Origin: Wenzhouxiangellaceae bacterium
GTDB lineage: Bacteria > Pseudomonadota > Gammaproteobacteria > Xanthomonadales > Wenzhouxiangellaceae
Length of the DNA stretch: 64,000 bases
Assembly (NCBI GenBank): GCA_965227925.1
Contig: CBDDGP010000003.1
Span: forward strand, 869,472 to 933,471
Direction: 5' to 3'
Part shown: piece by piece, positions 2,483-59,220 of the stretch
Layout of the letters: each line of letters begins with the position of its first letter
Numbering within the stretch: position 1 is the first letter of the stretch
Position numbers and translations under genes: made by a program
Notes under the pieces: generated by a model
Told to the model about the DNA's origin: nothing
The model's database searches: none
The model's input: only the letters and a program-made list of their open reading frames with translations

Positions 2483-3431
2483 GGCCGTCCGCCGCCGCTT
2501 CGCGCGCTGGCTGGACGGCGCACTGCGCCGGCGCGGACCGATCGAACCGCCGCTGACCCTGCGCTACCGACAGGTCTTCATCCTGCCGACCGCGTTCGGC
2601 TGGATGATTGCCCTGCTCCTGCACGGCATGCTGCTCGGCAGCCTGAACTTCAACAACAGCATGGGGCTCTTGACCACCTTTCTGCTGGCCTGTCTCGGGC
2701 TGCTGTCGATGCACCTGGCGTTCCGCAACCTGGAACGCGTTCGGGTCGAGGCCGTCCACACCCGGCCCGTGTTCGCCGGCCAGGCGGCCGTCGTTCACGT
2801 CGAGTTGAGCGATACCGCCGATCGTGCGCGGCTGGGCATCGTCTGCCGCCGTCCCGACGGCGCGGCGTCCAGCGGGGTCGATCTCGATGCGAGCGGATCC
2901 GCGCAGGCCGAACTGGAGCTCCCCACCGAGCGCCGCGGCCGGCTTCCCGTGGGTCGGCTGCGCATCCGGACCCGGCAACCGCTCGGCCTGTTCGAAGCCT
3001 GGTCCTGGGTCGAGAGTCGGGCCTCGATCCGCGTCTGGCCGCGACCCGCCGACCGACCGCCCCCGCCCCCGCGCAGCAGCGACGCCCGTCGTTCGACGAG
3101 CCCGGGCGATGAAAGCGACGAATTCCACGGGCTGCGCAACTGGCGCGAAGGCGATCCAGTACACCGGATCGCATGGAAGGCCAGTCAGCGCCATGATCAG
3201 CTGCTGGCGCGGCAGTTCACGCGTCCCGAGCGCGGCCGGATCGTGTTCCGGCTCGACCAGGCGGCGGCCGCGGATCTGGAAGGCCGGTTGTCGGTCCTGT
3301 GTCGATGGATCCTGGACGCCGAACGCGAAGACCTCGAGTACGGCCTCGATCTGGGTACCTGGCGTGCCGCTCCCGACCGCGGCGAAGCTCACCGGGACCG
3401 ATGCCTCGACGCGCTGGCCGACCACGAATGA
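2442..3431 (+). CDS. DUF58 domain protein (MoxR partner)
   Basis: Follows MoxR. Has two N-terminal TM helices and then the DEFHGLRNWREGDPVHRIAWKASQR motif characteristic of DUF58. The start is uncertain; ATG at 2442 was chosen from ORF 2367..3431. Confidence 0.8.
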   Translation: MSSPASSSVRRFPEAVRRRFARWLDGALRRRGPIEPPLTLRYRQVFILPTAFGWMIALLLHGMLLGSLNFNNSMGLLTTFLLACLGLLSMHLAFRNLERVRVEAVHTRPVFAGQAAVVHVELSDTADRARLGIVCRRPDGAASSGVDLDASGSAQAELELPTERRGRLPVGRLRIRTRQPLGLFEAWSWVESRASIRVWPRPADRPPPPPRSSDARRSTSPGDESDEFHGLRNWREGDPVHRIAWKASQRHDQLLARQFTRPERGRIVFRLDQAAAADLEGRLSVLCRWILDAEREDLEYGLDLGTWRAAPDRGEAHRDRCLDALADHE

Positions 3432-56168: not shown

Positions 56169-57137
56169 TCAGTCCCAGCCCTCGGGATGACCGTCGATCG
56201 GCTTGTAGCCGCCCTCGACGCCCTTGGTGACGATCGCGACCGCGTTGTGCGGGTGCAGGCTCTCGAAGTGGCGGCAGCGCGCCCAGAAGTCGGTGATCCG
56301 GTCGTGGCCGTCCAGCGCGCCCTGCACGCGGCGGCCGGCGTCTTCGCAGAACATCAGGTTCTGGCCGTTCAGGCGAGCGAACTCCTGCTCGTCCTCCCGC
56401 TTGACCGCCGTCTGGACCGGCGTCTTCAACGCGCCTTCGAGCGTGTCGATCAGCTCATCGAACGGAAAGGCCTGGAAGCCGGGTTCGAAGCGCACCCGGA
56501 CATCGGCGATCGAGCGCTGGCTGTGCGGCGTCGCCATGATGCCATTCTCGCTTCCCAGCCAGTTCAGCACCTCGTCGCGGTCCAGTGACCGGCCGGCGTC
56601 GAAGTCCTTTTCGAACTGCTGCTGGATCAACTGCCGCGCAAGCGCCGCCGAGCACGGGCAGGTGCTCGAGTAGGTCACCTCGAAGGCCACTTCGACATCG
56701 AACTGGCGGCCATCGAGCGTCGCGATGATGCTGAAGGGGTACGACCGCCAGCCAGCGTTGTCGCTGGCCAGCGCCGGCCGACGAACCTGGTAGTCGAAGT
56801 CGATGCGGACCATCGCGCGCGTACTCAGGTCGGCGTGCGACTCGAGAAAGTCGCGCAGCAGGTGATGCAGCGACATCGGGGTCACGCTGTGCTCGGCCAG
56901 CGCCCGATCGAGGTGAAGATACAGGCGCGACATGTGGATGCCGCGCACTTCCGGACGGGCCAGGTTGACGAACGCGCTGACCCTGGCCGGGCAGCGGATA
57001 TCTCCGGCACCGTCGGCCGACAGACGGATCGGGATCTCGATCTCGTTCATGCCGACCCAATCGAGGGCGCCCGCAGCCTGGGTGTTCGGCTGCGAGGCGA
57101 TGTCCGGCATCGAAACGACCTGTGACTTGCTCTTCAT
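56169..57137 (-). CDS. folE2: GTP cyclohydrolase I type 2 (FolE2)
   Basis: ATG at 57137 within ORF 56169..57416. ...VRGIHMSRL...VTYSSTCPCSAALAR...FCEDAGR is typical of FolE2/MptA. Confidence 0.88.
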   Translation of the reverse strand: MKSKSQVVSMPDIASQPNTQAAGALDWVGMNEIEIPIRLSADGAGDIRCPARVSAFVNLARPEVRGIHMSRLYLHLDRALAEHSVTPMSLHHLLRDFLESHADLSTRAMVRIDFDYQVRRPALASDNAGWRSYPFSIIATLDGRQFDVEVAFEVTYSSTCPCSAALARQLIQQQFEKDFDAGRSLDRDEVLNWLGSENGIMATPHSQRSIADVRVRFEPGFQAFPFDELIDTLEGALKTPVQTAVKREDEQEFARLNGQNLMFCEDAGRRVQGALDGHDRITDFWARCRHFESLHPHNAVAIVTKGVEGGYKPIDGHPEGWD

Positions 57138-57286
57138 GTCTACGATCCTGGTTGATCCAAGGGCACGGCCGACCGCCGTAAGACCGCGAGTATGGCGACG
57201 CCCGATCAACGTCAGGTGAGCCTGGGGAGGGTCGATTTCAACCCGTCCCGGCGCGCGGTCCGGGGATCGACCGGCGCGAGAGAAAA

Positions 57287-57331
57287 TGGTCGGAGCGGGG
57301 AGATTCGAACTCCCGACCCCCACAACCCCAT
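57287..57331 (-). repeat. displaced 3' half of tRNA-Pro (45 nt identical to 59144..59188), the distal att-type direct repeat of the islet
   Basis: TGGTCGGAGCGGGGAGATTCGAACTCCCGACCCCCACAACCCCAT is identical at both positions. It spans from the first anticodon-loop nucleotide to the CCA end. Identity breaks immediately 5' of this span. Confidence 0.9.
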
Positions 57332-57465
57332 CATGGCGCCCGATTAGACGTAACGCACTGATAATTAAAGGCTTTAATCTCCAGCTGACCGCCCAATACC
57401 GTGCAATTCCGTACATTGAGGATCAATAACTTACATCGCGATATGCTACCGGATTTCCGACCGCT

Positions 57466-58005
57466 CTATTCTCCATTTTGCAGTGTCATCGAGCTCTGAA
57501 TTGAAAATTCGCCGGGGGGCTTGATTCTTAAAAGCCCATGCTCACACCGAATCTTCCCGTCTAGATCGAGCAACCTGGCTTTGTTCTCACTCCGATTTCG
57601 GCTAGTGACCTTCGCGATACCGTCAGTTGTTACGAGGGTATCGCAGCCGGTTGATACGGCAGTCTGCACAACCACAGCATCAAAAGGGGTCAGCATGTGC
57701 CTCTGAGCCAGCAGTGCAGCTTCCTTGCATAGCTTCGTGTGGGCAGGTTGTTTGTAGAAAATGCTTCGATCAAAAAAACTGCTGAAGGCTTCATTTTGTT
57801 GTTCTCGATCAACAACTTGTGACTCGATTTCTCTCAAATACAAGCATTCTGCAATTACTACGGTTGGAAGAACTATCTGAATTTCGCCGTTCTCCGCGGA
57901 GTCAATAATCGTCTGAACGTGTTGAGCTACGGGCTGCCTTTTGGAAATCACATCCAAAATGACGCAAGTATCCAAGCACACGTTTTGTCGACTCTCAACC
58001 GCCAC
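57466..58005 (-). CDS. PIN-domain (VapC-like) putative ribonuclease with ~50-aa C-terminal extension
   Basis: 179 aa, GTG start preceded by AAGG. The four acidic PIN positions are recognisable: VCLDTCVILD, VVIAECLYL, TPFDAVVVQTAV and LVTTDG. It overlaps the upstream gene by 11 nt. Confidence 0.8.
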   Translation of the reverse strand: MAVESRQNVCLDTCVILDVISKRQPVAQHVQTIIDSAENGEIQIVLPTVVIAECLYLREIESQVVDREQQNEAFSSFFDRSIFYKQPAHTKLCKEAALLAQRHMLTPFDAVVVQTAVSTGCDTLVTTDGIAKVTSRNRSENKARLLDLDGKIRCEHGLLRIKPPGEFSIQSSMTLQNGE

Positions 58006-58780
58006 GCAATCGCCTTATGAGCTCCTGCGGGTCCACATCACCCGCAATGCGGAAATCCATCGCCTGCATCTCAGCTAGTGTTGGAAGCTGATCATCACTC
58101 GGTATGGGTTCCCAGCTTTCCACGGTCATTGAAACCGGGGTCCCATTTCGAGCATATTTGGCTTCTCCGAATACACGAATCCTCGATTTGATCAGAGAAC
58201 CCAACTCTTCGGCTTCGTCGGGATCGAAATAGCAGACGGTGGCCCGCGACTTCTGCACCGGTGTGTAGATTCCGAATTCGCTCTTGCTCCCGTGAACGTT
58301 AATCCTTTCGAGACTCCCTTCAAGTTCAGTGCGCTCATGCACAAACTCCGGCCCGAGGGCCAAGTCGATGTGCTCGATCAAGGAAGGGCCAATGTAGAAG
58401 AAACTACCGCTGGAATTCTTAATCCCGATTCGGTCGATCTTTTTGCAGGTAGTGGAGGCGACAGTTCGAATATTAGCGAGGCACCTCTCGGTGAAATGCC
58501 TTGGAGCGACACCGCCCGTTGAGATTGTTTCTACCCCGGAAATGAACGCTGAAACGATACTTGGATTCGTCGCTCCCTCCCGACCAATCCCTTCAAAGTC
58601 GGTAAAACTCGGATTGACTCGCTTAAGGTCACCAACTACCCAATCAACAGACTCGCCTCCATCTGATAGCTCTCTGTCCAATTCACGCAGGGCGACCAGG
58701 GTATGGCGCAGTACAGTCAGAAAAGAAGAGGCGTCAATCAATCCTCCCTTTCCTTCGATTTTCAGAGTCAGTTTCTCCAT
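57995..58780 (-). CDS. hypothetical 261-aa protein, upstream partner of the PIN gene (candidate antitoxin/sensor); no domain recognised
   Basis: ATG preceded by GAGG. Codon usage and G+C match the PIN gene rather than the host. It is far larger than a classical VapB. The sequence begins MEKLTLKIEGKGGLIDASSFLTVLRHTLVALRELDRELS... and ends ...DVDPQELIRRLRGG. Confidence 0.7.
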   Translation of the reverse strand: MEKLTLKIEGKGGLIDASSFLTVLRHTLVALRELDRELSDGGESVDWVVGDLKRVNPSFTDFEGIGREGATNPSIVSAFISGVETISTGGVAPRHFTERCLANIRTVASTTCKKIDRIGIKNSSGSFFYIGPSLIEHIDLALGPEFVHERTELEGSLERINVHGSKSEFGIYTPVQKSRATVCYFDPDEAEELGSLIKSRIRVFGEAKYARNGTPVSMTVESWEPIPSDDQLPTLAEMQAMDFRIAGDVDPQELIRRLRGG

Positions 58781-59077
58781 CTGACCCTCACCGGCCTTAT
58801 CGGGAAATTAGCGCTCTGCAGCGAACAGCACCTGCGCAGACCGTAGAACCTCAGGCACACCCCACAAGCTGCGCAATGCAGCTCGGATGAGCCGAATTTG
58901 ACTGTACCACTTCCGTCTCTCAGCACGCTAGAGCCGGTCTATCGCCCCGCCACTCAAACAAATCGATTGCGAAAACTAGGGTAGCCCGCCAAACCACACT
59001 GCCCCGGCCACAGCGACGCACGGCGCACTCCAATTCGGCCAATTTTTCAGCCAAAATGAAACGCACCACAAAATATT

Positions 59078-59105
59078 TTCTACCTGATTTCTACCGCATT
59101 CTACC
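59078..59105. repeat. three helically phased direct repeats TTCTACC (59078, 59089, 59099) next to the tRNA-proximal islet end
   Basis: The plus strand reads TTCTACCTGATTTCTACCGCATTCTACC. Spacings are 11 and 10 bp. The array ends 38 nt from the tRNA-Pro CCA end. Confidence 0.6.
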
Positions 59106-59143
59106 GGCCCGAGGACCGGGCCGGTACAAGTGCTTGATTTAAT

Positions 59144-59220
59144 TGGTCGGAGCGGGGAGATTCGAACTCCCGACCCCCACAACCCCATTGTGGTGCGCTA
59201 CCAGGCTGCGCTACGCTCCG
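59144..59220 (-). tRNA. tRNA-Pro (anticodon GGG), 77 nt with encoded CCA
   Basis: Reverse complement is CGGAGCGTAGCGCAGCCTGGTAGCGCACCACAATGGGGTTGTGGGGGTCGGGAGTTCGAATCTCCCCGCTCCGACCA. It folds into a perfect cloverleaf with anticodon loop ATGGGGT. Confidence 0.95.

Follow-up and report, generated by a model that had tools for sequence, protein, structure and literature searches.

What kind of system is the overlapping gene pair that sits beside the tRNA-Pro gene of a Wenzhouxiangellaceae bacterium (contig CBDDGP010000003.1), and what is the larger of its two products? The pair lies on the minus strand of a 64,000-nucleotide stretch of that contig (positions 869,472 to 933,471, hereafter the window) and encodes an unnamed protein of 261 amino acids (aa), here called the partner, followed by a PIN-domain nuclease. 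An initial annotation, made from the letters of the window, had put the pair forward as a candidate for an atypical toxin-antitoxin (TA) or defence module. As a candidate it is supported by the present analysis, since the partner belongs to no well-characterised family and its association with a PIN gene is conserved. The finding that the partner is followed by an overlapping PIN gene in every related locus makes a variant TA or phage-defence module the most likely identity of the pair, and we consider it fairly probable that the pair is a mobile two-gene, VapBC-like TA module with a new kind of partner.

The association of the two genes is without exception at about 24 independent loci, and the junction between them is overlapping at all of them. 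The census is made up of the window, loci L001 to L022 and L027 to L031, and one JGI contig. It includes four species-representative metagenome-assembled genomes (from the Armatimonadota, the Dehalococcoidia, the Thermoleophilaceae and the Phycisphaerales), nine metagenome loci and three further divergent members, two of which lack the EYVRRLRD motif of the partner C-terminus. Thirteen of the loci were retrieved with this motif, which is shared by alignment subset A4, while the broad alignments A1 and A2 hold no conserved stretch of 7-10 residues. PIN genes had already been called after the partner in L005/6, L007, L008 and the JGI contig; L002 carries a PIN-like N-terminus after the partner, and L001 the C-terminus of a partner upstream of a PIN that is 59% identical to that of the window. 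One apparent exception, L003/L004, in which an open reading frame (ORF) had been called on the opposite strand, was rejected because an uncalled PIN ORF of 165 aa overlaps the partner stop by 11 nt. To the question of whether the partner is always found beside a PIN gene, which the initial annotation had raised as a check, the answer is thus affirmative in all loci examined.

The two proteins also diversify together. Among 13 full-length pairs the matrices of pairwise identity for partner and PIN are correlated (r=0.64, Mantel p ~2e-4), which indicates that the two evolve as a unit. A few loci are damaged: the partner gene is split beside an intact PIN gene in L007 (2762-3556) and in L020 (191-1166), while in L011 (8710-9078) the partner is intact and the PIN is cut short at 122 aa. 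Pseudogenes or errors of assembly could account for these cases. Such decay is typical of TA loci and has been counted in favour of a TA module; if the splits are real, a fragment with the OB-fold and tail described below may suffice for neutralisation.

At the nucleotide level the 11-nt overlap between the two genes, the coordinates of which proved exact on re-examination, is by its sequence a putative translational-coupling junction. The GTG at 58005 is the earliest possible start of the PIN frame and is preceded by AAGG 7 nt upstream. In support of this start, the N-terminal length of the window PIN equals that of the homologue P0003 (59% identical), the gene of which overlaps its own upstream neighbour by 14 nt. 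The partner ATG is preceded by the Shine-Dalgarno sequence GGTGAGGG. A scan for promoters and terminators found no consensus sigma-70 promoter or terminator for the pair. The non-coding leader ahead of the partner gene holds the heptamer CTGCGCA twice, at 58832 and 58869 (37 bp apart, 58832-58875), one copy lying within the short palindrome AGCTGC-n5-GCAGCT. This repeat could be an operator, but it does not exceed chance expectation.

The 179-aa protein is a PIN nuclease as judged by Pfam (PF01850, E=6.4e-10; PIN_3, E=2.7e-8). The four acidic positions previously read from its motifs are all present as D12, E53, D109 and D128, and none of them varies among seven aligned partner-linked PINs. 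Its closest solved relative, found with a profile, is VapC 7by2_B (E=7.6e-4), and NCBIfam returns a sub-threshold VapC match only; at this distance the substrate is not inferable by homology. Fifty-one residues follow D128, and the initial annotation had regarded about 50 of these as a tail absent from classical VapC toxins. This view needs to be narrowed. A motif after D128, L..l.G.i....L.I..P, is common to all seven partner-linked PINs, and we take it to be the normal last-strand region of the PIN fold. Since part of the 51 residues is this shared motif, the addition specific to the window protein would, from the alignment, amount roughly to an insert of ~9 aa and an end of ~12 aa. The partner-linked PINs range from 165 to 202 aa in length.

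The partner is the novel component. Searches of Pfam, NCBIfam, PHROGs, PADLOC and PDB sequences gave no match to it, a PDB sequence search with its profile returned noise only, and neither Pfam nor NCBIfam contains a ribbon-helix-helix (RHH), AbrB, Phd/YefM or helix-turn-helix (HTH) domain that matches it at E<=1. These results bear out the earlier remark that no DNA-binding motif can be recognised in the protein. Its relatives are nonetheless many. A word-indexed homologue search found a single one and a profile six, and the family became visible only by exhaustive HMMER search, in which 1,106 representative clusters (50% identity) were recovered at E<=1e-3 and 312 at E<=1e-10. With few exceptions the members are 250-280 aa long and align from end to end, and the source name retrieved was "hypothetical protein" in every case. 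Its hosts span Gammaproteobacteria, Armatimonadota, Chloroflexota, Actinomycetota and Planctomycetota. Alignment A1 of this family comprises 62 sequences.

Conservation in the family is concentrated at its C-terminus. The words most widely shared (VRRLRD, EYVRRL and IDITGG) all lie in the tail, as does the most conserved motif, ITGGxDxxEYVRRLRD, which in the window reads ...DVDPQELIRRLRGG. The window partner ends in ...QELIRRLRGG, with the nearly invariant R259, and the nearly invariant residues of the family are present in it. The tail is acidic in all 13 pairs compared; a comparison of isoelectric points over whole proteins is uninformative, because several of the metagenomic partner ORFs are over-extended at the 5' end.

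Where sequence searches failed, a structural prediction gave a clear architecture. The AlphaFold2 (AF2) model built on the 62-sequence alignment reached a predicted local distance difference test score (pLDDT) of 93.3 and a predicted template modelling score of 0.79, and was used in place of the model from the single sequence (pLDDT 40). It shows an alpha/beta domain at the N-terminus (residues 1-142), a beta-beta-beta-alpha-beta-beta barrel (146-226) and a tail of two short helices (227-261), and pLDDT falls to 77-55 across the last ~25 residues. Foldseek against the PDB matched this barrel to oligonucleotide/oligosaccharide-binding folds (OB-folds) only, all with probability 1.0: Stn1, many anticodon-binding domains of lysyl- and aspartyl-tRNA synthetase (LysRS, AspRS), RPA, ExoVII and PolC, with E values from 2.9e-4 (Stn1) to 4e-3 across Stn1, LysRS, AspRS, RPA and ExoVII. 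The five-stranded, superposable barrel that characterises PF01336 is present in the predicted model. At the sequence level one of the 62 relatives matches PF01336 (E=6.7e-4), and the window partner itself has no match that reaches the Pfam gathering score. A reading of the N-terminus as RHH was rejected, since the model has a strand, one long helix and a beta-hairpin there and not strand-helix-helix. The earlier suggestion of a sensor or neutraliser in place of a simple DNA-binding antitoxin agrees with this three-part model and its OB-fold of nucleic-acid-binding type.

Among viral models (BFVD) Foldseek returned three full-length matches to the partner, all of them uncharacterised phage proteins: A0A8S5T657, Q6NE06 of Leptospira phage LE1, and A0A8S5QA00, a DUF6575 protein. 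The matches cover 263-302 columns (E 5.6e-10 to 1.9e-8, TM 0.42-0.47), yet identity to the window partner is 10-11%, and two of the three proteins are ~100 aa longer. DUF6575 is listed among new defence-system domains in Escherichia coli (PMC9519451), and which system carries it is not stated in the supplements of Vassallo et al. Membership of the partner in DUF6575 was rejected, as there is no Pfam match at E<=1 and the sole link is the structural match to this one protein.

How does the pair compare with systems already described? Its closest functional analogue is VapBC/FitAB, minus the DNA-binding antitoxin domain that defines it. As in those systems, the PIN is a single domain with a four-acid active site, the partner gene is upstream, co-oriented and overlapping, and the pair is a horizontally mobile two-gene unit. 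The tail of the partner is likewise the less ordered part of the model and could occlude the active site. The partner differs in its length of 261 aa, in its two folded domains (alpha/beta and OB-fold), and in having no RHH, AbrB, Phd or HTH domain and no sequence similarity to VapB; the PIN differs in its distance from solved VapCs and in being 30-60 aa longer. Of the features expected of VapBC, the PIN tetrad and the adjacent, overlapping upstream partner are thus present and a DNA-binding antitoxin domain is absent. We rejected the identification of the partner as a classical VapB because such a domain was found neither in Pfam or NCBIfam nor in the AF2 model.

Other comparisons are more distant. 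The OB-folds of PF01336 (Stn1/RPA32, class IIb aminoacyl-tRNA synthetases, the ExoVII large subunit) are alike in fold to residues 146-226; the OB-fold of the window partner differs in falling below Pfam thresholds and in having an unrelated domain on its N-terminal side and a PIN-linked tail behind it, and its nucleic-acid binding is putative. The PADLOC system PDC-M32, of components A and B and of unknown function, is likewise a two-gene, prophage-borne defence candidate (PMC12429752). Nine of the 62 partner relatives weakly match PDC-M32A (best E=1.5e-5), in all cases only at profile positions ~103-264 of 375, a core region that includes the OB-fold; with its ~375 positions PDC-M32A has ends unlike those of the window partner. 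The window partner itself has no match to the PADLOC models at E<=1, and none of 17 partner-linked PINs matches PDC-M32B. On these grounds membership in PDC-M32 was rejected, although the partner and PDC-M32A may share a distant core. No description of the pair came up in literature searches that combined PIN with OB-fold and either antitoxin or defence.

The pair moves horizontally, and it does so in several vehicles: a tRNA islet, a P. aeruginosa phage, an IS1595-family transposon and an integrase-bearing element. In Pseudomonas aeruginosa phage vB_PaeS_AV001 it lies directly downstream of a Peptidase_S24 repressor gene on the same strand, and proteins identical to this phage pair are encoded on four contigs of IMG/VR and on over 1,000 contigs of P. 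aeruginosa. The PIN of this phage (L009 5785-6318; PQ349086.1 35987-36520) is annotated as "repressor protein"; it has the acidic tetrad and matches a profile of partner-linked PINs at E=1.4e-51, so that it has probably been misannotated. Terminal inverted repeats of 37 nt (98-134 and 3193-3229, 86% complementary) delimit a unit in L016 (98-3229) that contains, besides partner and PIN, a transposase of the IS1595 family and two small ORFs on the minus strand; here the pair travels as passenger of an IS1595-family transposon. In L007, L016, L030/L031 and the JGI contig the gene directly upstream of the pair encodes an IS1595 transposase. In L027/L028 the pair adjoins the integrase of a small integrase/terminase/AAA_25 element. 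The contig of these two loci (ENA ctg299507_1x_c, 24.4 kb) contains twice a unit of ~10.5 kb with integrase, partner and PIN, AAA_25, HTH_17 and a terminase-like gene, and this repetition points to a small phage- or satellite-like element that was assembled as a concatemer or as a circle. In L018 the neighbours of the pair are a methylase-Mrr fusion and a transposase of IS1. Other loci, most of the chromosomal ones among them, have housekeeping neighbours. Among 50,697 phage records the family was found in one. As to whether the family resides in defence islands, its surroundings are not classic islands of this kind: it is found in a prophage, in the IS1595 transposon, in an integrase element or in otherwise ordinary chromosomal DNA.

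In the window the vehicle is probably the remnant of an integrative element of which the gene pair is the only surviving cargo. The islet, which is listed with the other features in Table 1, was compared with the other 1.8-kb windows of the 64-kb stretch (n=552), which average 0.678 +/- 0.02 G+C with a minimum of 0.63; it falls ~8 standard deviations under this mean. G+C at third codon positions is 0.50-0.55 for the pair and 0.77-0.84 for five flanking genes (folE2, lpxH, a MerR-family gene, ihfA and pheT). A direct repeat of 56 nt (57284-57339 and 59141-59196) bounds the islet, and its exact core of 45 nt (57287-57331 = 59144-59188) equals the 3' 45 nt of tRNA-Pro, from the first base of the anticodon loop to the CCA end. 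Tyrosine-integrase elements whose target is the anticodon loop typically show a block of identity from that loop to the 3' end. Apart from the pair there is no ORF of more than 70 aa between the repeats, although the scan for integrase remnants did not extend to the short ORFs in 58781-59143, and no excisionase gene is present in the islet. As no integrase-sized ORF lies between the repeats, the pair is the sole cargo. The earlier description of the two genes as low in G+C and as the only cargo of a foreign islet is thereby corroborated, by composition and by the tRNA repeats alike.

Table 1. Coordinates of the gene pair, its junction and the surrounding islet in the window
Feature	Position	Strand	Details	Source
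PIN-domain nuclease gene	57466..58005	-	GTG start, 179 aa	ORF list
Partner gene	57995..58780	-	ATG start, 261 aa	ORF list
11-nt overlap	57995..58005	-	partner stop TGA 57997-57995 inside first PIN codons; PIN start GTG 58005-58003	
Leader, non-coding	58781..59143	-	363 bp, between tRNA-Pro and partner gene	
Islet	57340..59140	.	1,801 bp, G+C 0.51, two genes only	
tRNA-Pro (anticodon GGG), integration target	59144..59220	-	Rfam 59.5 bits	ARAGORN; Rfam
tRNA-Pro 3' part, second copy, far islet boundary	57284..57339	.	exact core 57287-57331	
Three GGTAGAA repeats	59078..59105	-	TTCTACC on + strand at 59078, 59089 and 59099; 10-11 bp spacing; inside islet beside tRNA	

Measured against tRNA-integrated genomic islands, the islet has direct repeats of the tRNA 3' end that bound DNA of foreign composition, and it lacks an integrase gene within the element. 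With tRNA-targeting integrative islands it shares the repeat from anticodon loop to CCA, the composition and a set of heptamers resembling arm-type sites, but it differs from them in having neither integrase nor excisionase gene and in being only 1.8 kb long. The heptamers in question, GGTAGAA, occur only seven times in the whole window when both orientations are counted, and the three beside the tRNA look, from their sequence and spacing, like integrase arm-type sites left in an element that has no integrase. The DNA of the islet, the leader included, has no match in phage or plasmid DNA. Two further observations concern its edges. A G+C-rich hairpin at 59104-59124 (CCGGCCCG-AGGAC-CGGGCCGG), ~20 nt past the 3' end of tRNA-Pro and without a T run, may be a terminator of the tRNA, a processing signal or part of an attachment-site arm. 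On the far side, the mechanically called folE2 ORF (56169-57416, minus strand, 415 aa) extends over the displaced tRNA fragment, and its Pfam match to GCHY-1 begins only at residue 103; the true start of folE2 is probably further downstream, e.g. at the ATG at 57137 (MKSKSQVV...).

If the pair is a VapBC-like TA module, one may envisage the following course of events. Partner and PIN would be made in a fixed proportion through translational coupling, and the partner would bind the PIN directly with its flexible, acidic C-terminal tail and so keep it inactive. The co-diversification of the two proteins and the conserved tail of low model confidence agree with such binding and neutralisation, if only indirectly. 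FitA-FitB is a precedent for an arginine that reaches into an acidic active site, and by analogy the conserved arginine of the tail may enter that of the PIN. The N-terminal domain and the predicted OB-fold would replace the usual DNA-binding domain, with binding of nucleic acid serving either autoregulation or the sensing of a trigger. Should loss of the element or an infecting phage cause the partner to disappear, to be degraded or to be diverted, the freed PIN would cleave RNA, probably tRNA or rRNA like other VapC toxins, and thereby arrest growth. The pair would be the addictive remainder of a decayed tRNA-Pro integrative element and would persist at this site because it is addictive or protective.

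A number of points weigh against such a module. Toxicity, neutralisation, defence and the function of the tail are all putative. The DNA-binding folds by which VapB antitoxins are defined are missing from the partner, the DNA upstream of its gene shows no conspicuous operator-like palindrome, and a protein of 261 aa with two folded domains is not obviously labile. The partner of L005 is linked to a PIN and has no RRLRD motif. It must also be noted that the 13 loci fished with the C-terminal motif may bias the census towards PIN-linked members. Furthermore, a tblastn search of 72,556 plasmids found no member of the partner family, and classical plasmid addiction is consequently not its usual niche.

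These points leave room for other explanations, the nearest of which takes defence as the function for which the pair has been selected. It overlaps with a VapBC-like module and differs from it in this selected function and in assigning to the OB-fold the part of trigger receptor: in a dedicated abortive-infection or superinfection-exclusion system, the N-terminal domain and OB-fold would sense a phage nucleic acid or protein (single-stranded DNA (ssDNA), a replication intermediate, a protein like the single-stranded DNA-binding protein) and release or activate the PIN, which would shut off translation. The place of the pair directly after the CI-type repressor of a temperate phage, taken here as a lysogen-expressed moron position, argues for such a role, as do its neighbours in the integrase/terminase/AAA_25 element and in L018. 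The structural matches to three phage proteins, one of them with DUF6575, point the same way, and the core-only resemblance of nine relatives to PDC-M32A suggests a shared core with exchangeable effector-binding ends. Yet the missing PADLOC match of the window partner, the consistent failure of partner-linked PINs to match PDC-M32B, the housekeeping surroundings of most chromosomal loci and the single phage record speak against it, and no phage phenotype is known. We regard a dedicated defence system as possible, though not as the probable answer. One may speculate further that the partner family is a modular nucleic-acid-sensing regulator, in which binding of a specific RNA or ssDNA (tRNA, or an intermediate of phage replication or packaging) by the N-terminal domain and the anticodon-binding-type OB-fold, and not proteolysis, switches the PIN on or directs it, and that the PDC-M32A and DUF6575-like relatives are the same core wired through other C-terminal adaptors to other effectors; we put this forward as a tentative and rather doubtful extension.

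Strict co-occurrence and co-diversification would fit an obligate heterodimer equally well, and the pair might accordingly be a ribonuclease of two subunits. The partner would then confer specificity in a positive sense, its OB-fold would recruit or present RNA such as a tRNA anticodon loop to the PIN, and the complex would be the active enzyme. The nearest structural neighbours of the OB-fold, the anticodon-binding domains of LysRS and AspRS and the ssDNA-binding Stn1 and RPA, would suit this role. PIN and OB/S1-type domains cooperate in ribonucleases such as Rrp44/Dis3, and VapC toxins commonly cut tRNA anticodon loops. However, the order and overlap of the genes follow the convention of antitoxin before toxin, and the patchy, mobile-element-borne distribution and rapid divergence (~25% mean identity) are unlike those of housekeeping ribonucleases. 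The loci with a truncated PIN or split partner also disagree with an obligate enzyme, and the conserved OB-fold residues, read against the PF01336 consensus, presumably form the structural core and not an evident RNA-binding face. We consider a two-subunit ribonuclease unlikely. Less likely still is that the pair is an inert relic, a non-functional leftover of a decayed island that has been kept by chance. The islet is indeed minimal, and neither an integrase nor a consensus promoter or terminator was found in it; against this, both ORFs are intact and as long as is usual in the family, the PIN has kept every catalytic residue and the partner its nearly invariant ones, and the coupling junction is preserved.

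If the VapBC-like reading is true, the partner represents a widespread class of PIN-toxin partners. The family counts over 1,100 clusters at 50% identity from no fewer than five bacterial phyla, and it is unnamed and undescribed in the family libraries, source names and literature searched. The usual antitoxin is a short DNA-binding domain with a tail; here its place is taken by a protein whose core is a predicted OB-fold, of the kind by which tRNA anticodons or ssDNA are read. A folded core of this kind raises a testable question, namely whether the protein in the antitoxin position is a ligand-sensing switch or a substrate adaptor of the PIN ribonuclease. The presence of the same module in a temperate P. 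aeruginosa phage and in the many P. aeruginosa contigs mentioned above provides a tractable model in which toxicity, neutralisation and phage exclusion can readily be assayed, and the IS1595-family transposon with its passenger illustrates one route by which such modules spread. Should the more speculative view of a modular sensor hold, the family would be a new promiscuous superfamily of sensors and antitoxins comparable to Panacea (PanA). New partner families of PIN toxins turn up regularly; this one is large, structurally distinctive and testable in P. aeruginosa.

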